This document shows, piece by piece, positions 1,895 to 62,555 of a stretch of 64,000 bases of DNA. Source of the DNA: Saprospira sp. CCB-QB6 (GTDB lineage Bacteria; Bacteroidota; Bacteroidia; Chitinophagales; Saprospiraceae); assembly GCF_028464065.1 (NCBI RefSeq), contig NZ_CP116808.1:1199886-1263885 (forward strand), written 5' to 3'. Within the stretch, counting starts at the first letter, position 1, and each line of letters begins with the position of its first letter. The notes under the pieces are model-generated. The model did no database searches, was not told the origin of the DNA, and was given only the letters and a program-made list of their open reading frames with translations. The translations under genes were made by a program, and so were the position numbers.

Positions 1895-2050
1895 TTCGGG
1901 GCCTCCGCAGCAAAGCTGCGGCGCTGCGTTTCAGGGCTCGCAGGTCTGCTCGGCCCTTCGCCAGCAAGCTGGCTCGGTCTGGCCTAGCGGCCACCCTTTC
2001 ACATCGCTAGGCCAGTTGGCCTTCGGCCAAGGCGGCTGCGCCGCCAAAAG
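1895..2050 (+). repeat. GC-rich interspersed element, variant B (GGGGCCTCCGC...GGGCTCGCAGG...CACATCGCTAGGCC)
   Basis: Shares conserved arms with more than 20 other copies in the window. The six-frame ORFs at 1800-2066 lie inside it and are artefacts. Confidence 0.85.
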
Positions 2051-2098
2051 GACCCGTCTAAAATAGCAACAGCCAGTCAGAAATCTGACTGGCTGTTG

Positions 2099-2170
2099 TT
2101 GGCCTACTAGGACTCGAACCTAGAATGACAGAACCAAAATCTGCTGTGTTACCAATTACACCATAGGCCA
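2099..2170 (-). tRNA. tRNA-Gln (anticodon UUG)
   Basis: The reverse complement folds as a cloverleaf: acceptor TGGCCTA/TAGGCCA, anticodon loop TTTTGGT, T-arm GGTTCGAGTCC. Confidence 0.85.
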
Positions 2171-2217
2171 ATAAAATCTTTGCTACGTAAAGGAGCCAAA
2201 CTCTCGTTTGAAAGTTG

Positions 2218-2289
2218 TTGGCCCACTAGGACTCGAACCTAGAATGACAGAACCAAAATCTGCTGTGTTACCAATTACACCATGGGCCA
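2218..2289 (-). tRNA. tRNA-Gln (anticodon UUG), second tandem copy
   Basis: Near-identical to the first copy with acceptor TGGCCCA/TGGGCCA, located 120 bp away. Confidence 0.85.
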
Positions 2290-2339
2290 ATTCCGTAGCG
2301 GCACAAATATAAGAAGGAAAATTAAACCTCCAAAACTTT

Positions 2340-3984: not shown

Positions 3985-4150
3985 ATTTTGCGGTGGACAG
4001 GCGGCGAAGCCGCCGCAGGCTGAGGGATGGAAAAGGGTGGCCCGAAGGGCCAGACCCAGCAAAAATGCGAAGCATTTTTTGCGCAGGGCCGAGCGAGTAG
4101 CGAGCCCTGACACAGCCCGACCCGACCAAAGGGCGGGGCAGCCCCAAAAT
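3985..4150 (-). repeat. GC-rich interspersed element, variant A, reverse orientation
   Basis: Reverse complement of the 6664-6895 copy, including the gcaaaaaatgc..gcatttttgc hairpin. ORFs at 3914-4177 are artefacts. Confidence 0.85.
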
Positions 4151-4153
4151 ATC

Positions 4154-4840
4154 CTATTCTGGAATAGGATGATCTAGCATCTTGAAAGTAAAGAATTCGA
4201 GCATTTTAACGACTGCATCCAGCTGGCCTTTTTCTACAGAAACATCGGTAATAGAGGGGAAATGCTCGGCAAAATAGATATGATCGCTAGCCATTTCAAT
4301 TAGGGTAGAAGCTAGCGTATTGGGGTAGGGAAAATCGGGTTTTACAGCCTGAATGGCATCGGCAATGACCTTAGAAAGGGTTTTGTAGTTGAGAAAAAGC
4401 CCCTCCTTATTTTCATGATCGACCTCTTTGGTGTGGTAGGCCTTGATGCCCTCGGCCACGACAATGCGATGTAGGCGGTTTTCGTCTACATATTCTACAG
4501 CAGGGTTGGTTTGTGAAGAAGTGACCAAAGTGGTCAAGATTATTTTTAATCGCTTGGCGGGACAATCGATATTCATGCTATTATAATCAATTTGGAACAT
4601 GGTCCACTCCCAATACCAACAGACCAAATAGAGCAGCAATTTGTGCTTATTTTCAAAATAGCGATAAACAGAAGCCTCCGTTGATTGAATTTTGCTTGCC
4701 AGTTTTTTGAAGGTAAACTTCTCAAAACCGAGTTCCTCAATCAGGATAATGGCGTACTCAATGATTTTTCGGCCCAATTTGGTTTGCTGGGGGTCTCGTA
4801 GGTAAAGGTTCTCGTTGAGTTGAATATGAATAGCAACCAT
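4154..4840 (-). CDS. TetR/AcrR-family transcriptional regulator
   Basis: HTH KLASKIQSTEASVYRYFENKHKLL near the N-terminus. Start trimmed to M at 4840. Confidence 0.8.
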   Translation of the reverse strand: MVAIHIQLNENLYLRDPQQTKLGRKIIEYAIILIEELGFEKFTFKKLASKIQSTEASVYRYFENKHKLLLYLVCWYWEWTMFQIDYNSMNIDCPAKRLKIILTTLVTSSQTNPAVEYVDENRLHRIVVAEGIKAYHTKEVDHENKEGLFLNYKTLSKVIADAIQAVKPDFPYPNTLASTLIEMASDHIYFAEHFPSITDVSVEKGQLDAVVKMLEFFTFKMLDHPIPE

Positions 4841-4958: not shown

Positions 4959-6581
4959 TTAGTCGGCTTCTAGCTCTAGCGGTTGTATCTGCTTGAGCTC
5001 TGCCAAGCTCTCCCCTTCCCTATCGAGGCCAAACCATTCCCAACGAATTTCTTTGAATTTGGCATAGGCCTTAAAATCCTCAAAAATATCAAGAATATCG
5101 GGATCAATATGAGCGGTTCGGCTAGCGTCAATAAGCAAATGACTTTGAGCAGGAACCTTTGATAGGTATTCCTTTAATGCACTTTTATTCAAAAAAGAAA
5201 GATCTTCTGATAGCTGAAGATGAATCCTATCGCCCTCCTTAATTTCCGTAAAAGGCAAACGATAATTATTGCGTAAAATATAGAAAATAGCCACAGCCAT
5301 CCCGATCGTAATCCCGACTAACAAATCGCTAAGCAAAATGGCGACAATCGTAACCACAAAAGGAATAAATTGCTTATACCCCTGCCTCCACATCTGTTTA
5401 AAGACGGTTGGATTAGCCAATTTGTAGCCCACCATAACCAAAATGGCCGCTAAACTGGCCAAGGGGATGAGGTTGAGCAAAAAAGGAATTGTCAAAACGG
5501 CCAAAAGCAAAAAGACCCCATGCAAAAAAGCCGCTGTCTTAGAACGTCCCCCTGACTGAATATTGGCCGAAGAGCGCACAATCACCTGAGTAACAGGCAA
5601 ACCACCCAACAAACCCGCTGCAATATTTCCCATTCCCTGGGCCTTGAGCTCTTGGTTGAGGTTGGTGGTCCGTTTATGCGGATCCAATTTATCGGTAGCT
5701 TCTGCACAAAGCAGAGACTCCATACTCCCCACAATCGCCAACGTTATGGCCGTACTATAAACGGCTGGATTAAAGAGCTCTGCAAAGTTTGGAAACTTCA
5801 TTTCATTAGAAAAGGCTGCCCAAGAATCAAAAATAGGCAAACTCACCAAATGCTCTGGGGCAATTTCCAGTTGTGGAATCCCCTTAAAGCCCAAATTCAG
5901 CAAAATGCCAGAAATAACCGCCACCAAAGGCCCCTGAATCCACAAGGCCCAAGGCTGCTTTTTAATCAGGTCCTGCTGCCAAATAATAAGAATGGTAAAA
6001 GCCACCAAAGCCGCTACCGCTGGCCCCCAATTGACATTCAAGCCCTCAAAAACATCTGTAAATGCCTTAAAAATTTCACTAAAAGTCGTCTCCCCATCTG
6101 GCTGCTGATAGGCCATCTCCCCCTCTGGGTCCTTGTCATCGCCCAAAGCATGCGGAATCTGCTTGAGGATGATAATCAAACCAATGCCCGACAACATCCC
6201 CTTAATGACCGAAGATGGAAAAAAATACCCAATGCTTCCCGCCTTCAAAAAACCGAGCAAAAGCTGAAAGATACCCGAAATCACTACCGCCAACAAAAAG
6301 GTTTCAAAACTACCCAATTGCTCAATAGCCGCAATGACAATGGCCACCAATCCAGCCGCTGGACCACTGACCCCCAAAGAGGAATTTGAAAAAAGCGTGA
6401 CCACCGTGCCCCCCACTATGCCCGCAATAATGCCCGACAAAAGAGAGGTGCCCGAAGCTAAAGCAATACCCAAACAAAGCGGTACCGCAACCAAAAAAAC
6501 GACGATAGCCGCAGGCAAATCGTTGCTTAAATACTTAAATGACAGAGGAGACTTCATAGCTATAATTGTATGTTTAGACAA
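4959..6581 (-). CDS. SulP-family anion (sulfate/bicarbonate) permease with C-terminal STAS domain
   Basis: 540 aa, multiple TM helices, C-terminal STAS-like region (LIDASRTAHIDPD...). Confidence 0.9.
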   Translation of the reverse strand: MSKHTIIAMKSPLSFKYLSNDLPAAIVVFLVAVPLCLGIALASGTSLLSGIIAGIVGGTVVTLFSNSSLGVSGPAAGLVAIVIAAIEQLGSFETFLLAVVISGIFQLLLGFLKAGSIGYFFPSSVIKGMLSGIGLIIILKQIPHALGDDKDPEGEMAYQQPDGETTFSEIFKAFTDVFEGLNVNWGPAVAALVAFTILIIWQQDLIKKQPWALWIQGPLVAVISGILLNLGFKGIPQLEIAPEHLVSLPIFDSWAAFSNEMKFPNFAELFNPAVYSTAITLAIVGSMESLLCAEATDKLDPHKRTTNLNQELKAQGMGNIAAGLLGGLPVTQVIVRSSANIQSGGRSKTAAFLHGVFLLLAVLTIPFLLNLIPLASLAAILVMVGYKLANPTVFKQMWRQGYKQFIPFVVTIVAILLSDLLVGITIGMAVAIFYILRNNYRLPFTEIKEGDRIHLQLSEDLSFLNKSALKEYLSKVPAQSHLLIDASRTAHIDPDILDIFEDFKAYAKFKEIRWEWFGLDREGESLAELKQIQPLELEAD

Positions 6582-6663
6582 TTAGATGATAGTAAAGCTA
6601 TCAAGTACAAAGGTAATTAACTTATTCTAGTTAGTTTCACTTTATTTTATCTTTTTCTCTTCT

Positions 6664-6895
6664 TTTTTGGGGCTGCCCCTCCCGCCGAGTTGAAACCGAT
6701 CGCAAAGCGGTATCGCTTTGCGAAGCGATACAAAATGAGGGTGGAAACCCTCATGAGTTATTGGTCGGGTCGGGCTGTGTCAGGGCTCGCTGCTCGCTCG
6801 GCCCTGCGCAAAAAATGCTTTGCATTTTTGCTGGGTCTGGCCCTTTGGGCCACCCTTTTCCATCCCTCAGCCGTTTGGCCTTCGGCCATTTTGAG
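6664..6895 (+). repeat. GC-rich interspersed element, variant A, with an extra hairpin insert
   Basis: TTTTGGGGCTGCCCC...GGGTCGGGCTGTG...CTCGCTCGGCCC...GGTCTGGCC..GGGCCACCC. The ORF at 6690-6932 is an artefact. Confidence 0.85.
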
Positions 6896-7606: not shown

Positions 7607-7640
7607 AATTGATTTTGGGCCAAAAATAAGCTTTTTTTGG

Positions 7641-7812
7641 GAGGATTGGAGGCGGCGCAGCCGCCTTGGCCGCAGGCCAGTTGGCCCAGCGCTGCGGAGG
7701 GGTGGCCCGAAGGGCCAGACCAAAGCCGCCGCAGGCGGCTGCAGGGCCGAACAGCCCTGTGAGCCCCGCAGCATAGCGGCGGCCGCCCCTCATAAAAGGG
7801 CGGCCGCGGGCT
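7641..7812 (-). repeat. GC-rich interspersed element, variant B reverse, plus a GCGGCCGC hairpin module
   Basis: ccacc..gggtggcccgaagggccagacc..., then gcggcggccgcccc..ggggcggccgcgggc. ORF 7593-7793 is an artefact. Confidence 0.8.
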
Positions 7813-7813
7813 C

Positions 7814-8686
7814 CTAAAAAATACTTTGATTAGTTAGGCGGAGAGCAGCACGGAGGGCATTGAGCATATTTCCGTGAGTTTGAATTTCTTGGATATCGAG
7901 ACCAATATCGACAATAGTTTGGGCTACATTTCCGGAAATGCCAGAGAGCATAGCTTGGCAGCCCATGAGTTTGGCGGCTTTGCTCATTTTGATCAGGGCA
8001 TTGGCCACCTCGCTATCCATCACGGCGATGCCTCGGATATCGAGAATAAAGACCTTAGCATTTTTCTCGGCGATAGCTTCCAGCATAGCGTTAAGGACTT
8101 GTCGGGCTCGTTCGCTATCGAGGAAACCGACCAGAGGCAGGAGCAGGATACCTTCCCAGAGGGGGGTAATGGGGGTAGACATAGCCGAGAGGGTTTCCTC
8201 TTTTTCTTGGAGGAGTTCTTCTTGGGCTTTACTGTAGCCATCGGTCAGGGTGGAGATAGCGATTCCGGTCAGTTTTCGATAAGTTTTGAGCAGACTAAGC
8301 GTAAGCAGGCCTTCTCTTTCGAATAGGTCTTGGACCTCTTGGTGGTAATAATTTTGGAAAGCTAAATAGGCATCGAAGGGGATGCCTACACTGGCGAAGA
8401 CTTGGCCAAAAAACCGTTGGCGTTCGATATATTCGTCATCGGCTTGGCCAGCGAGCAGATCGTCCCAGAAAATATCTTCGCTATCTCGGATGGCTTGCAG
8501 GACATCCTCTGTATAATACTGTTGGAAGAAGGGGTGATTTTCTAGCCAGCTGTAGAAGCGCGAGTAGAGTTCATCTTTTTGATCATAAATTTTTTGGCCG
8601 GCTTGGGCAAGTTCTGCTAGGTCTTCATCGGTGAGAAAAAAGAGGGCTTGGTAATAGGGCCAATTTTTAGTGTTAGGATCAATCAT
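7814..8686 (-). CDS. RsbR-like protein with N-terminal globin-like sensor and C-terminal STAS domain
   Basis: C-terminal LLPLVGFLDSERARQVLNAMLEAI...FILDIRGIAVMDSEVANALIKM is a STAS/anti-sigma-antagonist fold. No RsbS or RsbT gene is adjacent. Confidence 0.75.
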   Translation of the reverse strand: MIDPNTKNWPYYQALFFLTDEDLAELAQAGQKIYDQKDELYSRFYSWLENHPFFQQYYTEDVLQAIRDSEDIFWDDLLAGQADDEYIERQRFFGQVFASVGIPFDAYLAFQNYYHQEVQDLFEREGLLTLSLLKTYRKLTGIAISTLTDGYSKAQEELLQEKEETLSAMSTPITPLWEGILLLPLVGFLDSERARQVLNAMLEAIAEKNAKVFILDIRGIAVMDSEVANALIKMSKAAKLMGCQAMLSGISGNVAQTIVDIGLDIQEIQTHGNMLNALRAALRLTNQSIF

Positions 8687-12816: not shown

Positions 12817-12839
12817 TATTATAGTGTTTAGTTTTTATT

Positions 12840-12967
12840 TTTTTTGGGCCTCCGCCTCGCTGCGCTCGTCGGCGCTACGTTGCGGGGCTCGCAGGTCTGC
12901 TCGGCCCTTCGGCGGCTTTGCCGCCTCGGTCTAGCCTGCGGCCACCCCTCCACATCGCTAGGCCAAG
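12840..12967 (+). repeat. GC-rich interspersed element, variant B
   Basis: TTTTTGGGCCTCCGC...GGGGCTCGCAGG...CACATCGCTAGGCC. Confidence 0.85.
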
Positions 12968-13754: not shown

Positions 13755-13850
13755 ACAGGGTCGCCGAAGGCGAAAGACCTAACGGGCGCAGCCTGCACAG
13801 GGCCAATCGAGCAGCAAGCTGCGACAACCCGCCCCAAAAAAGAGGCTATC
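13755..13850 (-). repeat. GC-rich interspersed element, degenerate or truncated copy
   Basis: gtcgccgaaggcgaaagacc..gggcgcagcc..gagcagcaagctgcgac..gccccaaaaaa resembles the reverse-orientation arm. Confidence 0.6.
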
Positions 13851-16726: not shown

Positions 16727-16804
16727 AATAAAAAGCGAATTAGTAATTATTAAACTCGAACTCATTTTGTGAGACGGCAGGCGTCTACATTGGCTTAGGG
16801 ATAG

Positions 16805-16925
16805 GTAGCAGGGCCACCGGAGGTGGCAGACCGAAGCCCGGAGGGCTGAAGGGCCGAGCGAACAGCGAGCTGCGATATAGCCCGACCCTAGCGCCTTTAG
16901 GCGCCTAGGGGAAGCCCCTAAATAA
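16805..16925 (-). repeat. GC-rich interspersed element, variant A reverse (degenerate)
   Basis: gggccaccgg..ggcagaccgaagcccg..gggccgagcgaacagcgagc..cccgaccc. Confidence 0.7.
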
Positions 16926-21811: not shown

Positions 21812-21882
21812 ATAAATCTAGCCCTCGGGACACAAAGAGCAATGGAAGCTAATTCTATTGCTCTTTGTTATGTTTTGGGGCC

Positions 21883-22130
21883 TCCCGCCACAGGCGGGCG
21901 GTTACTCCTTTTAGTCGTCGAACTGCGGCCTAAAGGCCTTGTTGTCGTTCCGCAGCTCGCTGCTGTTTTGGGGCCTCCCGCCTGCGGCGGGCGCTACGTT
22001 CCGCAGCTCGCTATTCGCTCGGCCCTGCGGCGGCTTTGCCGCCTGGGTCTGGCCCTTTGGGCCACTGCTGCACATCGCTAGGCCTGCGGCCCTTCGGGCC
22101 TGTAGATCGCAACTCCCAAAACTTTTGGCC
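21883..22130 (+). repeat. Composite GC-rich element: GTTACTCC...GTCGTCGAACTGCGG module followed by variant B
   Basis: Two abutting modules. ORFs 21842-22313 are artefacts. Confidence 0.85.
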
Positions 22131-22975: not shown

Positions 22976-23117
22976 TGGGTTAAATACTTTAACTTAGGTA
23001 AAGGCGGGTGAATGCCTCCAAATTTAAAAAATTGTTTGGAAAAGGCGCAGCCAAAACGATTTTATAATTTAGATTTTCTTAATAACGCCTTTATTTATTG
23101 TTTTTTGCTGCTTTTGA

Positions 23118-23285
23118 GGTGGCGGAGCCGCCTGTGAGCGAAGCGAGCCATGGCCCAGCGCTGCGCAGCAGTGGCCGCAGGCCAGACCTAGCGGGCGCAG
23201 CCCGCGCAGGGCCGAGCAGACTTGCGAGCTGCGAAGCATAGCGGCGGCCGCCCCACTATAAAGGGCGGCCGCGGGCCCCTAAAAA
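23118..23285 (-). repeat. GC-rich interspersed element, variant A reverse, plus a GCGGCCGC hairpin module
   Basis: gccagacc..gggccgagcag..., then agcggcggccgcccc..gggcggccgcgggc. Confidence 0.8.
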
Positions 23286-27679: not shown

Positions 27680-27808
27680 TGAATTGGCCTAGCGCTGTGG
27701 AAGGGTGGCCCTCAGGCCAGACCGAGGCGGCAAAGCCGCGGCCGAAGGGCCGAGCAGTCCTGCGAGCCCTGAAACCTAGCGCCGCAGCAAAGCTGCGGAG
27801 GCCCCTAA
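27680..27808 (-). repeat. GC-rich interspersed element, variant B reverse, inside the cluster
   Basis: cctagcgctgtgg..gccagaccgaggcggcaaagccgc..cctgcgagccc..gcagctttgctgcggaggcccc. Confidence 0.85.
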
Positions 27809-27812
27809 ACTA

Positions 27813-30194: not shown

Positions 30195-30228
30195 AAGGTT
30201 AGTGTTTTATCTTTGAGCAGATTATTTA

Positions 30229-30346
30229 GGGGCCTGCGGGCTACGCCCGCCGCTATGTTTCAGGGCTCGCAAGCCTGCTCGGCCCTTCAGCCGCCTTTGG
30301 CGGCTTCGGTCTGGCCCTGCGGGCCACCCTTCCACAGCGCTAGGCC
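30229..30346 (+). repeat. GC-rich interspersed element, variant B, inside the cluster
   Basis: GGGGCCTGCGGG...GGGCTCGCAAG...CACAGCGCTAGGCC. Confidence 0.85.
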
Positions 30347-35251: not shown

Positions 35252-35370
35252 GGCCTAGCGATGTGTAGGGGTGGCCGAAGGCCAGACCGAAGCGCGCAGC
35301 GCTGAAGGGCCGAGCGAACAGCGAGCCCCGAAACGTAGCGCCGACGAGCGTAGCGAGACGGAGGCCCCAA
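35252..35370 (-). repeat. GC-rich interspersed element, variant B reverse, inside the cluster
   Basis: ggcctagcgatgtg..gccagaccgaagcg..gggccgagcgaacagcgagcccc..ggaggcccc. Confidence 0.85.
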
Positions 35371-35376
35371 ATTCTT

Positions 35377-36252: not shown

Positions 36253-36405
36253 TTTTGGGGCTGCCCCTCCTTTCAGTCGGGTCGGGCTGTGCCGTGGCTC
36301 GCTAATCGCTCGGCCCTGCGCCAGCAAGCTGGCTGGGTCTGCGGCTTCGCCGCACCACTTTCCATCCCTCAGCCTGCGGCGGCTTTGCCGCCTGCTCACC
36401 GCAAA
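36253..36405 (+). repeat. GC-rich interspersed element, variant A
   Basis: TTTTGGGGCTGCCCC..GGGTCGGGCTGTG..CTCGCT..CGGCCC. ORF 36193-36507 is an artefact. Confidence 0.85.
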
Positions 36406-36410
36406 AGGAC

Positions 36411-38588
36411 CTAAGGCAATCGTTTTTGCTGGCGCTTGAGCAACATACTGGCTACCCAAGTCAGAATCCCCCCCAAAATGGTTCCTACCAAAAAGGTAGC
36501 TACCCAATTATTAAACAAGCCCAAATTATTGCCGATGAACAAAACGATTGTGGCAAAAAGGACCAAGTAGAAAATTCGAAAAGCACCACTATAAAACATT
36601 ACATCTCGCACCTTCCAATCTAATAAAGAGAAGGCAAAACCCACAGCCATAAAAAATAACATGGCCAAAAGGGTCGAGAACACCACCCCATTTGCCTTTT
36701 TGATTTGATAAGCTATGGTGTAATGAATTTTATTGCTCTTTGCTACTTTATAGCGTTCAATTTTCTCCAACTTGGTATTCCAAACCTCTCTGGCCGCAAA
36801 CTTTTCTTCCAAGGTGCGCCACAATTCGGTATACCCATGATCATAACTAAGGGCCCAAACAGCAACTCCCCCCATTTTCTTCTCTAGGGCCAAGTCCATC
36901 TTCAAGCCCAAACTCGTCGAGTTATCAAAGTAAATCTCTTTGAGCGGATTGCCCAAAGTATCTACCAAAACGCCAATCATGCTATTGTGCATTTTGTCAT
37001 AACGCACTTTTAATCGGTTGGCCCGAGCCAGATTTCGAATTTCTGAATAAGCCATATAGCCCTCAAAACTTACCCCTGCATCACCTTCCAAGGCCCAAAC
37101 TGCCCCATGATAAGGCAGGGCAAGGACAAGACTAGTACTATGTTTGGCTCCAATTGCTTGAATGTAGCGATCAATAGTTTCCTCCAGACTTTCTTCCAAG
37201 CTATCCGATTCCGAAATAATCCCCTCTAAACCAGAGAAAAGATCAAATTCATGAATCTGAATAGTATCCTGTTCAGGTTCGAACAAGAACATATTGATTG
37301 GATTTCGGGCCGCATAATATTTAGCCAACTCAGCCTGGCAAGCAGTTGCTTTTAATGCTCTGCGGAGATACGGATTATCACGAAGCTCTTTGGTCGCTCG
37401 GATAATGCCCAAAACAGTCCCCAAATCATAGGTATTATACTCCAAATTTGTAATCCCCGCTCTGAGGATGTACATGTTTAAGGTATCCAGCAACTGTCGT
37501 TGATAACCTTCTGTATGTAGCAGTTCAATATTCTTAATTGCAGAAGAAGTCCGAAGCACAGAGTCTAAGCTAATCTTCTCTGAGTAACTCATATAGCTAC
37601 GCTTCCATTTTGCTTCGGGCTTGAGCAAAGGCGTCAAAGGTCCTTTGCTTACGCCTGTTGGTCGCAAATGAAAATTGTAGGCAGAAACAATAAAAATATC
37701 TACCCAATTTTGCAAAAAGCCTAGATCATAGACCTTTTCAGGATCGCGTAAAGGCAAGCTCATCGCAATAGTAAAGTTGGGATTTTCTTCGCGTAGTGCA
37801 AAAGAGAGCTCACGAACAAAATCCTCAAAATCTGCTTTATACTCGATAGGTAATTCTTCAAAGTTAATTTCTACTCCATCTCCCCCAGCATAATTGAGCA
37901 CAGCAATCAAGCTATCAATAAGGTTGCGTTGAACTACCTTTGCTGAAGTAAAAAAGATTTCACTACGCTCCCCTCTATGGCAAGAAAGCGTAAGCATAGC
38001 TTTACAACTATCTTTATGCGCTGTTTTTACAAAATCCCCATTCTTAAACTGATCAATGGCTTCAAAATCTTCATAGCCACCAGTAAAGGGATTCAATTTA
38101 TAGGCATAAAAAGAGGCATGGGTCAATAAACCAAAATTATAGTTGTGGTATTTTTCGCCGGCCCAAGAGGGATGCCAACCCCAAACCACCAAGTTTTGCT
38201 TACTATTGATTTCGGTAGACTGAACATAGAGTGCTGGCTCTTGCTCATACATCTCCTCTGCGCCCAATGGTTTTTCATAACGCGAATAGCGTCCCTTGGC
38301 CATTACTTTAAGGTCCGTTTCTGTCGGCATGCCCCACCAATGGCGAGCTAGCGTTCTAAAACGAGTTTGGCTTAGTTCTAAGACCACCTTATTTTCAATA
38401 ATAGTATCCTTCTCCCGAAGCTTTTCGAGTCGTTGCAAACGCAACTCTGAAGAATCCTCTGCCGTAGGGGTTAGGATTTGGGTGCCATTCAATTCTTTAC
38501 CGTCTAGCTGTGCCAAAAGACCAGAAGTTGCCCAGGCAAAACAAAAGAGTAAGAGTAAAATGGTCCGTATATGTGTCCACATCAACAT
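36411..38588 (-). CDS. Membrane-anchored protein with a GH18 (chitinase-like) domain carrying a degenerate catalytic motif, copy 1
   Basis: Signal peptide, then GGDGVEINFEEL in place of DGxDxDWE, then three C-terminal TM helices. 725 aa. Confidence 0.8.
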   Translation of the reverse strand: MLMWTHIRTILLLLFCFAWATSGLLAQLDGKELNGTQILTPTAEDSSELRLQRLEKLREKDTIIENKVVLELSQTRFRTLARHWWGMPTETDLKVMAKGRYSRYEKPLGAEEMYEQEPALYVQSTEINSKQNLVVWGWHPSWAGEKYHNYNFGLLTHASFYAYKLNPFTGGYEDFEAIDQFKNGDFVKTAHKDSCKAMLTLSCHRGERSEIFFTSAKVVQRNLIDSLIAVLNYAGGDGVEINFEELPIEYKADFEDFVRELSFALREENPNFTIAMSLPLRDPEKVYDLGFLQNWVDIFIVSAYNFHLRPTGVSKGPLTPLLKPEAKWKRSYMSYSEKISLDSVLRTSSAIKNIELLHTEGYQRQLLDTLNMYILRAGITNLEYNTYDLGTVLGIIRATKELRDNPYLRRALKATACQAELAKYYAARNPINMFLFEPEQDTIQIHEFDLFSGLEGIISESDSLEESLEETIDRYIQAIGAKHSTSLVLALPYHGAVWALEGDAGVSFEGYMAYSEIRNLARANRLKVRYDKMHNSMIGVLVDTLGNPLKEIYFDNSTSLGLKMDLALEKKMGGVAVWALSYDHGYTELWRTLEEKFAAREVWNTKLEKIERYKVAKSNKIHYTIAYQIKKANGVVFSTLLAMLFFMAVGFAFSLLDWKVRDVMFYSGAFRIFYLVLFATIVLFIGNNLGLFNNWVATFLVGTILGGILTWVASMLLKRQQKRLP

Positions 38589-41790: not shown

Positions 41791-41923
41791 GTGAACTGTT
41801 TTTTTGGGGCCTCCGCTGCGGCTTCGCCTTGCGGCGCTACGTTCCGCAGCTCGCTCTTCGCTCGGCCCTGCGGCGCAAGCGCCTTGGTCTGGCCTGACGG
41901 CCACTGCTGCACATCGCTAGGCC
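41791..41923 (+). repeat. GC-rich interspersed element, variant B
   Basis: TTTTTGGGGCCTCCGC..CGCAGCTCGCT..CACATCGCTAGGCC. Confidence 0.85.
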
Positions 41924-42304: not shown

Positions 42305-42452
42305 CCTAGCTGCGGCTTGGCAGCCGCAGCATCGGCCTAGCGATGTGGAGGGGGGGCCGCAGGCCAGACCGAGGCGGCAAAGCCGCCGAAGGGCCGAGCG
42401 AATAGCGAGCCCCGCAACGTAGCGCCGCAGCTTTGCTGCGGAGGCCCCAAAA
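42305..42452 (-). repeat. GC-rich interspersed element, variant B reverse
   Basis: ggcctagcgatgtgg..gccagaccgaggcggcaaagccgcc..gcagctttgctgcggaggcccc. Confidence 0.85.
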
Positions 42453-42524
42453 ACAAAAAAGCCTAACCCTAATAGAGTTAGACCTTTTTGATTACATCAA
42501 ACGTGAATAATGGGGAAAATTAGC

Positions 42525-47269: not shown

Positions 47270-47342
47270 AAGGGCGTTTTTATCCCTTTTCTTTTTTGTA
47301 GCTTGGGACCGTCAGTTTTCTGATGGTCCCTTTTTTTATTCT

Positions 47343-47610
47343 TTTTTGGGGCCTCCGCAGCAAAGCTGCGGCGCTATGTGTACTCCCGTTGGTCATCGAA
47401 CTGGCGCCCCTATAGGGGCTGGTTGTCGCAGCTCGCAAGGCTGCTCGGCCCTTCGTATTTCGCTATGCTCAATACTCGGTCTGGCCTACGGCCACCCCTG
47501 CACAGCGCTAGGCCCTTGCAGCGGCAAAGCCGCTGCAAAATCGCATTTTGTTTAGACAGCCCTGCGGGCTGAATGGACCCGGCCGGCGGTAGGCGGCTGG
47601 TCCGTTTTTT
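47343..47610 (+). repeat. Composite GC-rich element (variant B plus a GTCATCGAACTG module and extras)
   Basis: TTTTTGGGGCCTCCGCAGCAAAGCTGCGG ... CACAGCGCTAGGCC ... ORFs 47346-47572 are artefacts. Confidence 0.8.
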
Positions 47611-47664: not shown

Positions 47665-47908
47665 TAGCAAAGCCGCCTCCGCCTGGGGGCAGCTAGATTT
47701 TGGCCTTGGGGGCCAAAACTAGCTGCATAGCCTTCGGCCCTTCGGGCCTCAGCTCTTGGATATTGCAGGCGGCAAAGCCGCCGCAGGCTGAGGGGCTGGA
47801 GCAGGGCCGCCGAAGGCGGCAGACCAAGGTGCTGCAAGCGCCGCAGGGCCGAGCGAGCAGCGAGCTGCGCAATGGCCCGACCCGACCGAAGGGAGGGGCA
47901 GCCCCAAA
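47665..47908 (-). repeat. GC-rich interspersed element, variant A reverse (extended)
   Basis: ...gggccgagcgagcagcgagc..cccgacccgac..gggaggggcagccccaaaac. ORFs 47646-48014 are artefacts. Confidence 0.8.
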
Positions 47909-47970
47909 ACAAAAACATCCAGCCCCTCAAAAGAGACTGGATGTTTTGCTTATCGAAAAAGAGAGATCAA

Positions 47971-51994: not shown

Positions 51995-52145
51995 GCTGCT
52001 ACAGAGGCGCGAAGCGCCTTGGCTGAGGGATGGAAAGTGGTGCGGCGCAGCCGCAGACCCAGCGGGCGTAGCCCGCGCAGGGCCGAGCGAACAGCGAGCC
52101 ACGACACAGCCCGACCCGCCCGCAGGGTGGGGCAGCCCCAAAATA
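51995..52145 (-). repeat. GC-rich interspersed element, variant A reverse
   Basis: ...gggccgagcgaacagcgagcc..cacagcccgacccg..ggggcagccccaaaat. Confidence 0.85.
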
Positions 52146-54470: not shown

Positions 54471-54483
54471 ATTTATTTTTGTT

Positions 54484-54745
54484 TTTTTGGGGCGTTACTC
54501 CTTACAGTCGTCGAACTGCGGCTTGTAGCCTTGTTGTCTGCCTGCGGCAGGCGGTTACTCCCTTCGGTCGTCGAACTGCGCCCTAAAGGGCTTGTTGTCG
54601 TTTCGCAGCTCGCTATTACTTGCTTCGCTGCGTCGGCTCCCGTTGGTCGGGTCGCTCGGCCCTGCGCGGGCTTCGCCCGCTGGGTCTGCGGCTAAGCCGC
54701 CCCCCTCCACATCGGTTATTCCCTTCGGTCATCGAACTGCGGACT
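54484..54745 (+). repeat. Composite GC-rich element (three GTTACTCC..GTCGTCGAACTGCGG modules plus variant A core)
   Basis: Triplicated module with different hairpin stems (gcggcttgtagcc / gcgccctaaagggc / gcggactaaagtcc). Confidence 0.8.
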
Positions 54746-54823
54746 AAAGTCCTTGTTGTGGCCAAAAAAGAGAGCCCCCAGCTAGCTGCGCTGGCTGGGG
54801 GCTCTTGCGTAATAGAGCAAAGT

Positions 54824-55936: not shown

Positions 55937-56010
55937 GCTTCCATAGCTCAGTTGGTTAGAGCATCTGACTGTTAATCAGAGGGTCCCTGGTTCGAGCCCA
56001 GGTGGGAGCG
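55937..56010 (+). tRNA. tRNA-Asn (anticodon GUU)
   Basis: Cloverleaf: acceptor GCTTCCA/TGGGAGC, anticodon loop CTGTTAA, T-arm GGTTCGAGCCC. Confidence 0.9.
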
Positions 56011-56035
56011 CTACTCATACACAACAATATATTTT

Positions 56036-56109
56036 GCTTCCATAGCTCAGTTGGTTAGAGCATCTGACTGTTAATCAGAGGGTCCCTGGTTCGAGCCCAG
56101 GTGGGAGCG
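56036..56109 (+). tRNA. tRNA-Asn (anticodon GUU), identical tandem copy
   Basis: Same sequence as the first copy, 26 bp downstream. Confidence 0.9.
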
Positions 56110-56991: not shown

Positions 56992-56994
56992 TTT

Positions 56995-57232
56995 TTGCGG
57001 TGGACAGGCGGCGAAGCCGCCGCAGGCTGAGGGATGGGCAGCAGTGGCCGCAGGCCAGACCGAAGCCCGCAGGGCTGAAGGGCCGAGCGAATAGCGAGCT
57101 GCGAAACGTAGCGCCCGCCGAAGGCGGGAGGCCCCAAAACAGCAGCGAGCTGCGAAACGACAACAAGGCCTTTAGACCGCAGTTCGACGACCAAAGGGAG
57201 TAACCGCCGACGAGCAAAGCGAGACGGAGGCC
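56995..57232 (-). repeat. Composite GC-rich element (variant reverse core plus GTTACTCC module reverse)
   Basis: gcggtggacaggcggcgaagccgcc..., then cgcagttcgacgaccaaagggagtaacc. ORFs 56876-57247 are artefacts. Confidence 0.8.
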
Positions 57233-57274
57233 CAAATAAAAAGGCATCTAGCCTAAGCCAAATGCCTTTATCTC

Positions 57275-58417: not shown

Positions 58418-58513
58418 AGCTTTTTGTTTCCAGATTCTCTCTTTTAACAGCCCTTTGGGCCTATGGTTGCCGCAAAGATACAACTTTTTTCATCTGTTAT
58501 TGAAAGTAGGAAT

Positions 58514-58660
58514 ATTTTGGGGCTGCCCCTGCGGCCGTTGGCCTTGGGTCGGGCTGTCTCGCAGCTCGCTGTTCGCTCGGCCCTTCGCCGCCTATGGCGG
58601 CTCGGTCTGGCCTTCGGCCACTGCTGCCCATCCCTCAGCCAAGGCGCTGCGCGCCTTTCT
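58514..58660 (+). repeat. GC-rich interspersed element, variant A
   Basis: TTTTGGGGCTGCCCC..GGGTCGGGCTGTCTCGCAGCTCGCT..CGGCCC.. ORFs 58305-58836 are artefacts. Confidence 0.85.
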
Positions 58661-58865
58661 ATAGCTTGGAGCAAAGGGGTAGGGACAAAAAAATGAGCAG
58701 CTACTTTCCCCAAAGTAACTGCTCTGTAATCCCCATGATTTACCCCAAACTTAATTGAAGTTAGAGCAAGTATTTCCTTTTGCTCTATTGCAAATCTACG
58801 ATAAGCAATAATCAGTTTTCTAGGCCATTTAGGCAAAACTAGAAATTAGGTATTTCTCTTATAAT

Positions 58866-61800
58866 TTAATTTTGTGCTTCTAGCTTTTGTAGATAAGCCA
58901 CCACCTCCATGGCCATATTGTCCAACTCAGGTTGTACGGCCTCTACGGCATTGCGCTCTTCTAACCAAGCAAAATACTTCTGCTCAAACTCTCTCATCTC
59001 GTTAATATCCAGATAATAGAAGTTGATGTTAATATGCGCAGGCGCATTCACACTAAATACAGCATGCATAAGGTCTTGAAAGTCCTCATTTTGGAAACGA
59101 GAGGGCCAAGAGGGCAAAATGATACTCATATCTAATGAATAGAAGTCGTGGCGAACATCCAAATTGGGACGTTCTTCCAAAAAGAACTGAATGTTACTTT
59201 GCAAAGGAATAGCTCCAGACTTAAAGCTATACACATAGGCTACAATATCATCAATCTGTTCTTTGGCACCTTCTAGGGTATAGAAAATCTCTGGACAGCG
59301 AGCAATTTTATGATCATACTCCTTCAATACCACCTGATAACTTTCGCCATCTTCCAAGGTTTCTACAATGAAGTTCTCTTTTTTGCTGGCCAACAAATCT
59401 AGTTGATTACTCAAGTTGCGCTGCTCATCAAAAGCTCCAAATTCATAGCTTTCGAGCAAGGGGCGATCCTGATCATTAACCAAGCGGAAAGCGTGACGAT
59501 CTTGGGCCTGTGGACGAAGCAAAATATGCTCGACCACATGCATCCCCTCCGTTTGGTGGTTGATGCGAGCAAAGAATTTAATCAGCTTTTCCAACTCGAC
59601 CTGAGCCGCCAAAATGCTACTATATTCTCTAATCTTTACACAACCTAAATCGGGATTTCCCTTATAGTATACACTATACATTTCCTCCCCATCGCGATCT
59701 TCCAATAGGGCCAAATAATTATAGCTAAAAATACCATTGGCCAAAAGATCTTGCATGAGCTCATCCATGTCCTGCGCTCTAAAGATAAATTTAGAGCGGT
59801 AGTCTAGGGTTTCGGGCAATCGCTCAGGAGCGGGACCAGGATCTTCTCCTTTTTCAATTTTTTCCAAACGCTCTAGCTCTACATCTAAGTCCACATAGCC
59901 TTCAGGCAACATAGGTGATTCAATCTGTATCAAATCATGGAAGCTATCGATGCCATCTTCCAAAGGAATGTTTTCATCCTCCTCAAAAATGCGAACCAAT
60001 GACTCATTCCCCCCCTGATTGAGGTTGAGCAACAAACAAACCCGACGCTCTAAGCCAGCTACTTCCGTCTCTAGCAATTCCAACATCTTCTGGGTATATT
60101 TCAAATTGGTCTCTGAAATAGCCGCTGTCAAGGTTTCGGGCAAATCGAGATCTTTGAGCATTTTTTTCGTCTGCTCTTTGGCTACATCCTCTGGTTTGCG
60201 ATAGTTAATCGCCATAGAAAAAGCATCTTTCTGATGCTGACGAAGCGGATAGTTCTCCCGTAGCTGTTGATACTGCTTGCGAATCAAATCTCTTTCCGCC
60301 TCTTCTTTATATTGCTTAATGAGCGGCTCAAAAAGCTCTGCCCACTCTAACTCTTGCTCATAAATGACATTGTACAAGGCCATGTAATTAAAGCCACGAC
60401 TACGGTTGCGACTAATGTCTACATAGTTACGCAAAAACTCCAACTTGGCATTGACCAACTCATGCTCTGGACTCTTGGCCTCCCCTTCCGACATATCATA
60501 ACCCACATACTGACTCACCTTCAATAGAAAGTCCGTAGTGAAACGCTCCCCAAAACGAGCCAATAAATGGTCCAGCAAACGGTTGCGACGCTCCACAAAA
60601 GGATCAAATTCCTCTACCGTTTCCTCTAGCTTCTTTAACCTCGCCTCATTGTCTTTCCCCTTCAAGATGTATTGCATCTCAGGCATATTCTCTGGCAATT
60701 GCGAGAAATAACTGCGATCCAAATCGCTATCCAAAGAGAAAAACTTCTTCACATTGCCCAATTGGGCCAAGTAATTCGCCATCAACTGCTCAAAAAAGGA
60801 CAAATACCCTCTGAGCTGCTTAATCATGCCCAAACGCTCCCGAGTAGGACGCACACTATTGGGCAAGCCAAAAGGACTCAAACCATAAGTCGCCGGAAAA
60901 GTATTCTGTACCGAATAGTAACGCTTGATGTCCTCCTCTTTCAATACCGAGGGATAATCCTTCTCATTATAGAGCATCTTCATCTGATAGCCCTTCTTAT
61001 AACGAGCATAAAGCGAATACAACAACTGACTGGCCGTATTCAAATCCAAATCATAATTCAAGCTCCCTCGCTGAAAACGAATCGGATAAGCATCAGTTTT
61101 CCAACGTGCATCAATCGTGTCCATATCCAAAACGGGATAAGTCTTTTCGGCAATCCGAATGACATCTCCCTCCACAGGAAAACCATCTTTCTCTACCCGA
61201 AAATAATTGATGCGACGAACGCCCTCAATATCCGAGATGATTTCAATAATCTTCGAAATATAAACCTCCCGCTTCATGGCTTTGAGGTCCTCTTTTTTAA
61301 TGATACCATGCACCGGCACAGGACCATCAAAAATATCTTCGATCGCATAGCCCTCTTCCAAAAGCTCATCAATCGTATGATACTGAATGGAGGGCGTGAG
61401 ATGCTCCTCTAACTTAAAGAGAATTTCGGCCAACACTTCCTCCGCCACCACATCCGAACTAATGTCCAAATCAGTATAGATGATAATCTTGTCTACATCC
61501 AAGATCTCTATGGCCTCCAAATCCTCACAAAGATTGCGATGCGCCGCAAACAAAGCATATACTTCTCTCTTGATCTCTTTCATCCGCTGCGGATGACGAG
61601 CACTGTCGCTCACCTGCAACAAAATCCGATACAAGCCCTTAATCCCTTGCAAATGATCCCGTACAGGCTCTACCCAGGCATTTTTCACCCCATTCACCCG
61701 ATCAATAATCAAGCGGCGATAATCCTCTATCGTTACCGGATTGGTCGGCAATATCTCCGAAGCATCGTAAAAGGTGTTGTTCAAAGCCTTACGACGGCCC

Positions 61801-62036
61801 TTCCCTCTCGCATTCAATAAATCCTGAATGCTAAAATCCGTGCGAAAGCCCAAATCGGCCAATGCATAACAAAGTTGCTCCAAAATGGTCACCCCAGGGT
61901 CATGGGTGTTGTAATCGGTCCAAACTTTACCCGATAGTTCTTGCACCATCTGCAATCCCTCTTCCTTCAAAAAGAAGAAGTCCATACTCTTGTGCGGCGG
62001 GGTTTCGCGGAAAATCTGAATTGGTTTCTGCGCCAT
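58866..62036 (-). CDS. Large hypothetical protein (1056 aa), no recognisable domain
   Basis: Long ORF with uniform coding composition. Acidic, no TM helix or signal peptide. Confidence 0.8.
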   Translation of the reverse strand: MAQKPIQIFRETPPHKSMDFFFLKEEGLQMVQELSGKVWTDYNTHDPGVTILEQLCYALADLGFRTDFSIQDLLNARGKGRRKALNNTFYDASEILPTNPVTIEDYRRLIIDRVNGVKNAWVEPVRDHLQGIKGLYRILLQVSDSARHPQRMKEIKREVYALFAAHRNLCEDLEAIEILDVDKIIIYTDLDISSDVVAEEVLAEILFKLEEHLTPSIQYHTIDELLEEGYAIEDIFDGPVPVHGIIKKEDLKAMKREVYISKIIEIISDIEGVRRINYFRVEKDGFPVEGDVIRIAEKTYPVLDMDTIDARWKTDAYPIRFQRGSLNYDLDLNTASQLLYSLYARYKKGYQMKMLYNEKDYPSVLKEEDIKRYYSVQNTFPATYGLSPFGLPNSVRPTRERLGMIKQLRGYLSFFEQLMANYLAQLGNVKKFFSLDSDLDRSYFSQLPENMPEMQYILKGKDNEARLKKLEETVEEFDPFVERRNRLLDHLLARFGERFTTDFLLKVSQYVGYDMSEGEAKSPEHELVNAKLEFLRNYVDISRNRSRGFNYMALYNVIYEQELEWAELFEPLIKQYKEEAERDLIRKQYQQLRENYPLRQHQKDAFSMAINYRKPEDVAKEQTKKMLKDLDLPETLTAAISETNLKYTQKMLELLETEVAGLERRVCLLLNLNQGGNESLVRIFEEDENIPLEDGIDSFHDLIQIESPMLPEGYVDLDVELERLEKIEKGEDPGPAPERLPETLDYRSKFIFRAQDMDELMQDLLANGIFSYNYLALLEDRDGEEMYSVYYKGNPDLGCVKIREYSSILAAQVELEKLIKFFARINHQTEGMHVVEHILLRPQAQDRHAFRLVNDQDRPLLESYEFGAFDEQRNLSNQLDLLASKKENFIVETLEDGESYQVVLKEYDHKIARCPEIFYTLEGAKEQIDDIVAYVYSFKSGAIPLQSNIQFFLEERPNLDVRHDFYSLDMSIILPSWPSRFQNEDFQDLMHAVFSVNAPAHININFYYLDINEMREFEQKYFAWLEERNAVEAVQPELDNMAMEVVAYLQKLEAQN

Positions 62037-62116
62037 AGGTCTTATAAATCTGATAGGGCCTTGCCCTTGGGGTTCTGTTCCGTTCTAAAATATCTTGCGG
62101 TAGTGTGTGCTTGTCC

Positions 62117-62299
62117 TTATTTGTCCAATTGCTTGGGGGGCTCTTCTGCATGCATCTGGGCATTCGCCTGCTCATGAATCTTTCCGATCAACTCATAAAC
62201 TTCATTAAAGGGACGCTGCCCCAATGCCTGCAAAATCTTATTGATTTCTTGCATATCCAACTGCAAAAGCAAAGGTTTTTCTTCTTTTGTCTTGCCCAT
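62117..62299 (-). CDS. Small hypothetical protein (60 aa)
   Basis: Co-oriented ORF 80 bp upstream of the 1056-aa gene. Weak support. Confidence 0.3.
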   Translation of the reverse strand: MGKTKEEKPLLLQLDMQEINKILQALGQRPFNEVYELIGKIHEQANAQMHAEEPPKQLDK

Positions 62300-62402
62300 C
62301 GATCTTGTTTTTGTAAAAGCCTAGCGAATTTAAGAAAAAAAGCGCTTTGTGCCAATTTATACAAATTTGATTATAGAATTATAGAAGTACGGATTCTTTT
62401 TA

Positions 62403-62555
62403 TTTTGGGGCTGCCCCACCCTTCGGGCGGGTCGGGCTGTGTCGCAGCTCGCTACTCGCTCGGCCCTTCGGCGCTTGCAGCGCCTCGGTCTGGCCTACGC
62501 GCCCCCCCTGCCCATCCCTCAGCCAAGAAAAGCTGGCTGCGCCAGCCCCCAAAAC
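62403..62555 (+). repeat. GC-rich interspersed element, variant A
   Basis: TTTTGGGGCTGCCCCACCC..GGGTCGGGCTGTGTCGCAGCTCGCTACTCGCTCGGCCC.. ORF 62105-62698 is an artefact. Confidence 0.85.

Follow-up and report, generated by a model that had tools for sequence, protein, structure and literature searches.

What occupies the gaps between the genes of Saprospira? The question was raised by a 64,000-nucleotide stretch of the Saprospira sp. CCB-QB6 genome (positions 1,199,886 to 1,263,885 of contig NZ_CP116808.1; referred to here as the window), in which sharply bounded GC-rich islands of 103-256 nt (58-68% GC) were found in DNA averaging about 44% GC and ranging from 37 to 54% per kb. The islands lie between ordinary genes, among them ftsH, uvrC, the genes for a pfkB-family kinase, an mqnC/cofH-like protein and a SprB-repeat protein, and a VgrG/PAAR cluster. 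The islands can be aligned with one another in sequence and have a combined length of about 3.95 kb (6.2% of the window). The original prediction, made from the sequence alone, regarded them as 22 copies of one modular repeat family present in both orientations, and this was borne out, with an nhmmer profile of the 92-nt core of the repeat giving exactly 22 matches, 11 per strand, between 1923 and 62524, and with the outermost copies agreeing with the predicted limits of 1895 and 62555. The similarity exceeds chance, the core pattern GCTCGCN{4,6}GCTCGGCCCTN{12,30}GGTCTG being matched 18 times in the window and not at all in 100 shuffles. The repeats are lineage-specific, non-coding, non-autonomous, mosaic interspersed elements with a unit length of 115-290 nt and a near-invariant core, CAGACC...AGGGCCGAGC...GCGAGC. 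The prediction had also attributed most of the short false open reading frames (ORFs) of the region to the copies, which holds to the extent that many spurious ORFs of at least 100 aa overlap them (for example 21939-22313, 36193-36507, 47700-48014, 56876-57247, 58305-58664 and 62105-62698).

Distribution of the family across genomes

The family is dispersed genome-wide, hugely expanded in Saprospira and sparse in some relatives. When 185,579 species genomes were scanned for the core pattern, the listed matches being a lower bound, at least 108 8-kb blocks containing it were identified in S. grandis DSM 2844, spread across the whole of the 4.42-Mb scaffold and onto a 56-kb scaffold. Among the matches listed there were also single blocks in metagenome-assembled genomes (MAGs) of Saprospiraceae, Aureispira and Lewinellaceae, and two further matches in GC-rich genomes that look like chance. 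Where it overlaps the DSM 2844 sequence the window is 78-88% identical to it, and represents another Saprospira strain. Extrapolation from the density in the window, rather than a count, gives roughly 1,500 copies, or about 6% of the Saprospira genome.

Among 72,556 plasmids the family was present only in two Saprospira plasmids, those of Lewin and WHT (15 and 13 BLAST matches), at a density of about 21 core copies per 50 kb. These plasmids (NC_016936.1 and NZ_CP110855.1; 53-55 kb) carry guaAB, pur genes, pyrF and paa genes, and look like chromids because genes for purine and pyrimidine biosynthesis and paa genes are aboard. The family was found in none of 50,697 phage records, while one IMG/VR contig carries a remote relative. 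This 67-kb contig, IMGVR_UViG_3300017971_000039, is classed as viral and has a GC content of 43.8%; the relative lies at 4500-4760 and contains GAGCTCGCTATACGCTCGGCCCTTCGGG...GGTCTG together with a CCG-CTCGCTGCGCTCG-CGG module, and the contig could come from a phage of Saprospiraceae or from a prophage, or its classification may be wrong. No repeat copy was found in 959 kb of other Saprospiraceae DNA, comprising 80 metagenomic loci gathered through the pfkB gene, whose orthologs there are 59-76% identical, although the single same-species pfkB locus (97% identity) does hold one. In the draft of DSM 2844, runs of N marking assembly gaps stand directly beside element copies, which suggests that the repeats break short-read assemblies. 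No description of the family was found in the literature on Saprospira, on repetitive extragenic palindromes (REPs) and REP-associated tyrosine transposases (RAYTs) or on miniature inverted-repeat transposable elements (MITEs), coverage of that literature being incomplete, and the family is apparently undescribed.

Fold and anatomy of the element

The strand ending in a run of A was taken as the sense strand. Its layout is 5'-GGCYN-AGCG/AGGG...CAGACC-nAG-[H2]-nnAGGGCCGAGC-[loop]-GCGAGC...[H1]...NRGCC-CC-A(3 to 10+)-3', and a typical copy of type A reads 5'-GGCCT AGCG ATGT GCA GGGG [TGGCC GAA GGCCA] GACCGAG [GCGGC AAA GCCGC] CGAAGGGC [CGA GC GAACA GC GAG] CCCC GAA ACGT AGCG [CCGCAGC TTT GCTGCGG] AGGCC CC AAAA-3'. 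It had been proposed that conserved arms, in two variants, flank a single short central hairpin. Both figures proved too low. The fold consists of an irregular stalk (helices P1, P3 and P2) closing a junction with the crown hairpins H3, H2 and H0, while a side hairpin, H1, branches off the stalk, so that four or five hairpins are accompanied by long-range helices; distal hairpins H4 and H5 are optional. At least four variants of the terminal arms were distinguished in 218 parsed copies, namely GGCCT (type A; 111 copies), GGCTG (type B; 78), GGCCC (type C; 21) and GGCTT (8), and H0 occurs in two variants, GAANA and AGACCT. Several copies are composite or contain nested modules of 35-45 nt; these additional modules (M1 and M2, each of 45 nt, and J, of 35 nt) sit in loops, internal loops or the junction and never within helices.

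The long-range helices are matched far beyond expectation. The terminal 5-mers forming P1 were complementary in 217 of 290 copies, compared with 97 (maximum 117) when partners were shuffled, and the 4-mers of P2 that flank the crown were complementary in 263 of 302, compared with 124 (maximum 143). As MAFFT misaligned the variable hairpins when given 70 full-length copies, a gap-free subset and anchored parsing were used in place of a covariance model. Covariation was assessed in a gap-free alignment of 29 copies with a structure of 26 pairs, using 500 shuffles and slid controls. Paired cells made up 90.2% of the total, compared with 78.4% in the shuffles, and double-change cells numbered 81 rather than 23.3. 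The covariation score was 0.340, compared with 0.137, and was reached by none of the 500 shuffles; the aligned copies are related paralogs, so that the shuffle figures are not clean probabilities, but the slid controls (0.03-0.07) and covariation across species agree in direction. P2 was paired in 100% of cells with three of its four pairs covarying, and all six pairs of H2 covaried. The crown stems are almost perfect palindromes, with 3453 Watson-Crick pairs, 7 G·T and 9 A·C.

The core is retained in the sparse copies from Lewinellaceae, Aureispira and other Saprospiraceae MAGs, in which the arms of P1 and P2 also covary (GACCT/AGGTC, GCGCC/GGCGC, GCGTG/CACGC and AGAG/CTCT being examples); these copies are true homologs of the family.

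Strand asymmetry

The two strands of the element are not equivalent. On the strand that begins with the T-run, the loop of H3 was TTC in 115 cases, TGC in 79, TTT in 38 and TAC in 16, and the complementary loops were essentially absent there, so that the sense strand carries C-GAA-G, C-GCA-G and C-GTA-G triloops. Triloops of the form C-GNA-G and mini-hairpins of the GCGAAGC type are reportedly hyper-stable DNA motifs, according to Hirao, Yoshizawa and colleagues. The conserved junction hairpin and frequent variants of H1 have, on the sense strand, the form CGA-[short covarying stem]-GAA/GAACA/GACC-[stem]-GAG, and tandem G·A pairs beside a stem occur on that strand only. Within the stalk, A·G/G·A positions occur, as does, in 14 of the 29 aligned copies, a T·G pair at 11-87; in these places the opposite strand would have C·T and C·A mismatches. 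With DNA parameters the sense strand had the lower predicted free energy in 110 of 120 copies (p ~8e-20), and with RNA parameters in 78 of 120. From the triloops, the strand specificity of the G·A and T·G pairs, the energy bias and the near-absence of wobble pairs in the crown stems, we infer that the element folds as single-stranded DNA. In structured RNAs, GNRA and UNCG tetraloops are usual and G·U pairs are tolerated.

Variable stems around a multi-helix junction whose nucleotides are conserved, together with a core kept across bacterial families, would also suit free-standing small RNA genes or a self-cleaving ribozyme carried on a repeat, comparable to the hammerhead and twister ribozymes of repetitive DNA. 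However, the whole window gave only four tRNAs at the Rfam gathering score, and three copies within 56900-62700 gave nothing at E values up to 5. There is no conserved promoter-like or terminator-like flank, the statistics of loops and pairs are DNA-like, and no bacterial RNA gene is known to have some 1,500 copies in both orientations; an origin of this kind is therefore very improbable.

The sense 3' end always bears the A-run, which varies from 3 to 10 or more nt (a T-run on the opposite strand; 293 copies), and the body of the element is cloverleaf-like. Both features recall retroposons resembling short interspersed nuclear elements, in which a sense RNA ending in an A-run would have been reverse-transcribed into T-rich targets. 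We consider such an origin scarcely credible, as target-site duplications are lacking, no truncation pattern was seen, the sites are stable between strains and, to our knowledge, no bacterial machinery like that of long interspersed nuclear elements exists. The test for duplications, which the original prediction had put forward as a check, found none beyond chance, the longest word common to both flanks having a mean length of 5.43 nt against 5.50 nt with shuffled partners (n=263).

Persistence of sites and exchange of modules

All six sites of the window that lie in the overlap with DSM 2844 are occupied there too, by copies in the same orientation, and the six orthologs differ in their interiors by whole modules. 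Copy 14 (41799..41923, minus strand) is of type A, and a type B copy occupies the orthologous site. Relative to copy 15 (42309..42453, plus strand; type A), the ortholog has the arms of H2 swapped and the loop of H1 inverted. Copy 18 (51995..52143, plus strand; type B), which lies between divergent genes with uvrC on its right, differs from its ortholog at H2, H3, the H0 variant and P2 together, all of the changes being compensatory, although by eye the flanks show about 90-95% identity. In the window, two copies hold one and four additional modules, respectively, relative to DSM 2844, namely copy 16 (47342..47545, minus strand; type A), with a 45-nt M2 module missing from the ortholog, and copy 19 (54482..54766, minus strand), a member of a long subfamily with three M1 modules and the 35-nt J module in the loop of H0, whose ortholog is a plain type A copy.

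The same pattern was observed between the Lewin and WHT plasmids, whose common stretches are 95-99% identical and share about 20 of 20 elements at the same sites. The elements were about three times more divergent than their flanks (0.116 and 0.035 differences per column in 12 clean pairs), and the differences came in blocks. The entire crown from P2a to P2b was exchanged for another family variant in three cases, H2 plus H0 in one and H2 alone in one; in a further case H1 was replaced, paired positions in P3 and P2 had changed and the loop of H2 was inverted (AGA to TCT). Two plasmid copies differed in M1 modules (three in all), each standing in place of three nucleotides on the sense strand (TAG twice, AAG once), and in one of these copies the loop of H1 was also inverted (GAA to TTC). 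Adjacent modules were almost unlinked among the 218 parsed copies, with an adjusted mutual information of at most 0.07 among H3, H2 and H0, and arm type was independent of the H0 variant (Cramer's V 0.01, p 0.997). P2a and P2b, in contrast, were tightly linked (adjusted mutual information 0.57, V 0.94), as were the two strands of the stalk (0.57). The median nearest-neighbour identity was 0.90, and for 8 of 204 copies the identity to a neighbour reached 0.98 or more. Neither gain nor loss of an entire element was seen at the 6 chromosomal and about 20 plasmid orthologous sites. We read these results as an old, positionally stable population of elements that has been reshuffled and homogenised by short-tract gene conversion between copies.

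The prediction had offered a MITE-like origin as one possibility, and the copies are indeed small, non-coding, numerous and intergenic, with ends complementary over about 5 bp. For a classical MITE, however, the architecture is reversed. A deletion derivative of an insertion sequence (IS) encoding a DDE transposase, moved by cut-and-paste through its terminal inverted repeats, should have constant ends, of about 10 bp or more, and a variable interior, whereas here the 5-bp ends vary by subfamily, in at least four covarying versions, and the interior is invariant. Direct repeats in the flanks stand at the shuffled level, whole elements show no turnover at about 26 orthologous sites and near-identical copies are few. 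A DDE-type MITE was accordingly rejected, and we regard this origin as extremely improbable.

Compensatory changes in the stems had been taken as a sign of selection on the structure. Template switching and gene conversion have documented signatures (PMC8794818, PMC8604942), and it was asked of the present data how far a purely mutational account would go, in which template switching makes and maintains GC-rich palindromes, gene conversion spreads them and the fold itself is unselected. The essentially perfect stems without wobble intermediates, the inversion of loops on unchanged stems (AAA to TTT, GAA to TTC, AGA to TCT) and the swapping of whole hairpins between plasmids that are 95-99% identical all agree with those signatures. 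Changes in the local hairpins are explicable in this way without selection, and here the mutational account probably holds. It gives no explanation, however, for the partners of P1, P2 and P3 remaining matched at distances of 60-110 nt while the modules between them assort freely, for the one-sided orientation of the H3 loops, for a near-invariant core of about 30 nt common to copies from Lewinellaceae and Aureispira, or for the avoidance of helices by the additional modules. As a full explanation it is largely refuted, and we hold it improbable that the family is a mutational by-product. The matching of distant partners across independently assorting modules indicates a real constraint on the fold, so that the argument from compensatory change stands for the long-range helices P1, P2 and P3, the local hairpins being explicable without it.

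Orientation, flanks and neighbouring genes

Copies between co-directional genes occurred 57 times in one orientation and 59 times in the other, a further 57 lying between convergent and 45 between divergent genes; the orientation bias relative to flanking genes that had been suggested for inspection is thus absent. On the DSM 2844 chromosome the strand beginning with the T-run was the plus strand in 150 cases and the minus strand in 138, a weak test because the draft shows too little GC skew for replichores to be defined. The A-run end of the sense strand tends to be nearer the neighbouring gene than the opposite end. A terminator-like hairpin abutted the T-run in only 9 of 293 copies under a strict test, and separate canonical terminators stand beside some copies. 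The idea that the element is itself an intrinsic terminator was rejected, since on one strand the T-run comes before the fold and on the other the A-run comes after it, leaving no U-tract behind the fold. A promoter of the Bacteroidetes type (TAnnTTTG) at the junction of the T-run and GGGG did not fit by eye in the copies inspected. In low-copy MAGs of Lewinellaceae and Aureispira the copies had only housekeeping genes as neighbours, with no telltale gene. An integron attC array was likewise rejected, in view of the absence of R''/R' core sites (RYYYAAC / GTTRRRY) from the consensus, the random orientation and the housekeeping neighbours.

Several of these observations bear on the possibility that the element is maintained by the host for its RNA, as a multi-hairpin block that protects mRNA 3' ends, separates or processes polycistronic RNAs or attenuates read-through. 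Nearly all intergenic gaps are occupied; between the pur genes of the plasmids, each gap of 154-198 nt is filled by one copy, in alternating orientation. The sites are kept between diverged strains, the long-range pairing is held despite the reassortment of modules, and the RNA is predicted to be very stable in either orientation (about -57 and -58 kcal/mol). REPs of Escherichia coli have such roles (PMC2817692). However, since the copies show no orientation bias, the features specific to the sense strand (the GNA triloops, the tandem G·A pairs and the T·G pair) would serve no purpose in copies transcribed antisense, which make up half of the total. Triloops outnumber the GNRA and UNCG tetraloops expected of RNA, the crown stems are almost free of G·U, no U-tract follows the fold in either orientation and, as noted above, canonical terminators stand separately beside some copies. 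An orientation-independent role as a stable mRNA block may be compatible with the lack of bias, and the explanation is possible, if rather unlikely.

Proposed mechanism and search for a cognate enzyme

The reading that we tentatively favour, with slightly less than even confidence, is that of a family of non-autonomous repeats resembling REPs, bacterial interspersed mosaic elements (BIMEs) and REPINs (REP doublets forming hairpins), folded as single-stranded DNA and moved or maintained by a structure-specific protein acting in trans. The fold would form whenever the DNA is single-stranded, during replication, in transcription bubbles or on cruciform extrusion, and the folded strand would serve as the substrate of the enzyme. 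Copies would have spread to positions beside T-runs without duplicating the target, and the enzyme may still act. Amplification in the Saprospira lineage would have been followed by vertical persistence, as in REPIN-RAYT systems. Template switching and short-tract gene conversion would keep the local hairpins perfect and flip their loops, while constraint on the fold would keep the long-range helices matched. Side effects on the host, such as protection of mRNA 3' ends and separation of transcription units, are plausible. Of the elements of this reading, the fold, the strand asymmetry, the random orientation, the absence of duplications, the persistence of sites and the exchange of modules are observed, whereas the single-stranded DNA state, the enzyme and the way of insertion are deduced.

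The leading candidate for the enzyme is a HUH/RAYT-like nuclease, because a subclass of TnpA_REP is found in Bacteroidetes, GTAG lies 2 nt from the foot of H1 in type A copies and M1 replaces the TAG of that motif. In the study of Quentin et al. 2018 (PMC6006769), subclass 2.6 of TnpA_REP is reported chiefly from Bacteroidetes, with atypical secondary structures on its flanks.

Several findings weigh against this proposal. The cognate Y1 transposase for which a search had been suggested was not found in the roughly 1 Mb of Saprospira DNA searched (about 22% of a genome), where E. coli RayT had no tblastn match with E below 1 and scanning for the HuH...Y motif gave 0 matches. Gain or loss of a whole element was never observed, and mobility is deduced from dispersal. 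The orientation bias by chromosome strand that characterises IS200/IS605 was not seen in the weak test described above, and the T-run lies 5' of the non-structured strand, a misfit with the IS200/IS605 rule. Retention of six of six sites over 12-22% divergence, together with pairing kept in about 87% of copies in spite of recombination, would fit selection at the level of the host, for example through an RNA role, at least as well, and such selection, for a role in RNA or in DNA, is the chief rival. The RNA from either orientation is predicted to be strongly structured too.

A different possibility, which we consider unlikely, is that the fold is an actively maintained single-strand aptamer at some 1,500 fixed intergenic sites, with the core CAGACC / AGGGCCGAGC / GCGAGC common across Saprospirales. 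In one version, a dedicated protein system could recognise the fold and swap its modules like cassettes, in a partnership of the REPIN-RAYT style with a different enzyme. In another, the fold could serve the host as genome-wide punctuation when transcripts are processed or the chromosome is organised, much as tRNAs act as punctuation in mitochondria.

Copies and other features of the window

Nine of the copies not yet described are grouped here by arm type. Type A is represented by copy 5 (12838..12964, minus), whose T-run end and the start codon of the gene at 12103-12816 are about 22 nt apart, copy 10 (27686..27809, plus), directly downstream of the PAAR-like small gene, copy 11 (30225..30346, minus) and copy 12 (35252..35371, plus), with an H1 module of the type CGA-GC-GTA-GC-GAG. 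Copy 7 (16792..16922, plus) has the arms GGCTT/AAGCC. Type C (GGCCC/GGGCC) includes copy 9 (23115..23285, plus) and copy 4 (7648..7826, plus), which has the core variant GTTCGGCCCT. Type B copies are copy 21 (58515..58663, minus), whose T-run end lies about 20 nt from an ATG, as read from the sequence, upstream of the mqnC/cofH-like gene (the ORF listing starts at 58483, with TTG), and copy 22 (62403..62555, minus), just beyond which stands the separate intrinsic-terminator hairpin of the gene at 62610-63977.

Other copies are extended, composite or reduced. Copy 1 (1893..2056, minus), of type A (GGCCT/AGGCC) with H0 variant 2, has its core at 1923-2013 and two distal hairpins reaching to about 2056, and adjoins two tRNA genes. 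Copy 2 (3986..4149, plus), of type B (GGCTG/CAGCC), has a 5' extension with H5 and H4 hairpins and an AT-rich H2 stem, and ends in GGGGCAGCCCCAAAA. Also of type B are copy 3 (6663..6891, minus), with an additional block of about 75 nt of AT-richer hairpins within H1, copy 13 (36253..36415, minus), with distal H4 and H5 hairpins and the end ...CACCGCAAAAGGACC, and copy 17 (47754..47909, plus), which has a 5' extension and faces copy 16 across a convergent gap. Two copies are composite: copy 8 (21871..22106, minus) consists of a half-element containing an M1 module (21871-21965), a complete type A copy joined to it (21966-22084) and then a distal hairpin, and copy 20 (56993..57232, plus) of a complete copy extending to 57139 and, after it, a half-element that contains an M1 module. 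Copy 6 (13757..13841, plus) is degenerate or truncated, with the core GATTGGCCCT.

Other repeats and hairpins were seen near the copies. Between copies 14 and 15, at 41909-42270, there is a tandem array of at least six copies of a 42-nt unit (66-84% identity), overlapping a 106-aa ORF; the orthologous gap of DSM 2844 has no array and contains other GC-rich hairpins. The gap between copies 16 and 17 (47545-47750) holds GC-rich hairpins that do not belong to the family, including a near-perfect one of about 17 bp, GCAGCTAGATTTTGGCC-TTGG-GGGCCAAAACTAGCTGC, and alignment with DSM 2844 shows hardly any change in them. Small hairpins of a second, AT-richer family are found in or next to the main elements at unrelated loci (6700-6770 in the window, about 5420-5520 in the Lewin plasmid), examples being ATGAGGGTGGAAACCCTCAT / TGAGGGTTTTAACCCTCA and GCATCGCGAAGCGATAC / GTATCGCTTTGCGAAGCGATAC. 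A short motif consisting of GGCC(C), a run of A or T and GGCC lies beside several copies (1865-1885, 7612-7628, 22128-22142 and 23305-23325), as in AAGGCCCTAAAAAAGGCC and TTTTGGCCCAAAAAAG.

Among the genes, the cluster at 27815-35063 is punctuated by copies 10-12. It includes a PAAR-like small protein, recognised by eye from its translation, and a VgrG-like protein with a Phage_base_V domain (28125-29969), while the genes downstream have no Pfam match; the cluster may encode a contractile injection system. The rhapidosomes of Saprospira lend interest to such a candidate. Three tandem paralogous genes, encoding 339, 327 and 327 aa, lie at 8693-11792 with no repeat in between, and their paired DNA segments are 67-76% identical. 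Tandem tRNA pairs are present at 55937-56109 (two identical copies, 99 nt apart) and at 2099-2289, the latter abutted by copy 1.

Significance

A single structured repeat family makes up about 6% of the DNA of the window. It offers an unusually clean natural experiment in which hundreds of paralogous copies recombine module by module while partners 60-110 nt apart remain complementary, and this combination of free recombination with retained distant complementarity allows compensatory change of mutational origin to be told apart, inside one genome, from constraint on the fold. Should there be a cognate enzyme, Bacteroidota would be added to the groups with long-term partnerships of the REPIN-RAYT type, and the DNA substrate would be far more elaborate. 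In practice, the copies create false ORFs and break assemblies, and masking or modelling them is advised in the annotation of Saprospiraceae genomes.

Comparison with known systems

Interspersed structured extragenic repeats as such are a known kind; the Saprospira family stands out by an unusually elaborate and deeply conserved fold, an unusually high density and an informative reassortment of modules with preserved long-range pairing. The original prediction of a REP/BIME-like family is upheld as regards behaviour: like REPs, BIMEs and REPINs, the copies are extragenic, GC-rich, hairpin-forming and numerous, occur in both orientations, combine modules in a mosaic manner, form subfamilies within one genome and occupy long-fixed sites. 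REPINs are described in the published account of REPIN-RAYT systems as vertically inherited and long-persisting, with little recent jumping, and the Saprospira copies likewise persist with little sign of it. Membership among REPs in the strict sense was rejected on size and architecture, however, as the unit is a multi-helix fold of 115-290 nt with an invariant core of about 30 nt and not an imperfect palindrome of 20-40 nt. As regards the GT[AG]G (or CGTC) foot of REPs, GTAG stands 2 nt 5' of the H1 hairpin in type A copies (GTAG-CG-[H1]), type C has ATAG and type B ACAG or CCCG, so that the motif is not conserved across subfamilies. The copies are also mostly single rather than doublets, and their density, about 0.34 per kb, is far higher. 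RAYT genes are reported in the same account to be absent from plasmids, whereas the Saprospira elements occur there too, and no RAYT gene accompanied them in the DNA searched. A BIME is a mosaic of palindromic units that alternate in orientation, with conserved linker motifs between them; the Saprospira elements have mosaic modules and conserved linkers, and their hairpins all belong to one strand of a single fold and do not form alternating palindromic units. A lead may be offered by the REPtrons of TnpA_REP subclass 2.6, which belong to the same phylum and have atypical structures without the GT[AG]G foot and with copies elsewhere in the genome; their flanking structures are described as weaker, and Saprospira is not named in the text of that study (PMC6006769).

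The ends of IS200/IS605 elements and their miniature derivatives, the palindrome-associated transposable elements (PATEs), resemble the family in strand-specific folding of single-stranded DNA, in the absence of target duplication and in a short specific flank (the T-run in Saprospira). They differ in that the Saprospira T-run is 5' of the non-structured strand, orientation on the chromosome is unbiased, neither TnpA nor TnpB lies nearby and one closed, multi-branched fold takes the place of two subterminal hairpins. A miniature derived from IS200/IS605 was therefore rejected on the grounds that the flank is on the wrong strand and strand bias is lacking, the second of these being weak as long as the replichores are undefined.

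Structured intergenic repeats of 100-200 nt, often co-transcribed with genes, are also represented by the Correia elements (neisserial miniature insertion sequences, NEMIS), the enterobacterial repetitive intergenic consensus (ERIC) and BOX, which is modular (boxA, boxB, boxC). Correia and ERIC elements have long terminal inverted repeats and TA duplications, and we know of none of the three with a conserved junction core or with module reassortment that preserves long-range pairing. Finally, the GC clusters of yeast mitochondria and the double-hairpin elements of fungal and algal organelles are GC-rich palindromic modules that lie in AT-richer intergenic DNA and nest within one another. They are much shorter and have no conserved multi-helix architecture. 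Their small modules are tied to short specific sites, and in Saprospira, likewise, the M1 module stands precisely in place of a TAG or AAG of the sense strand.

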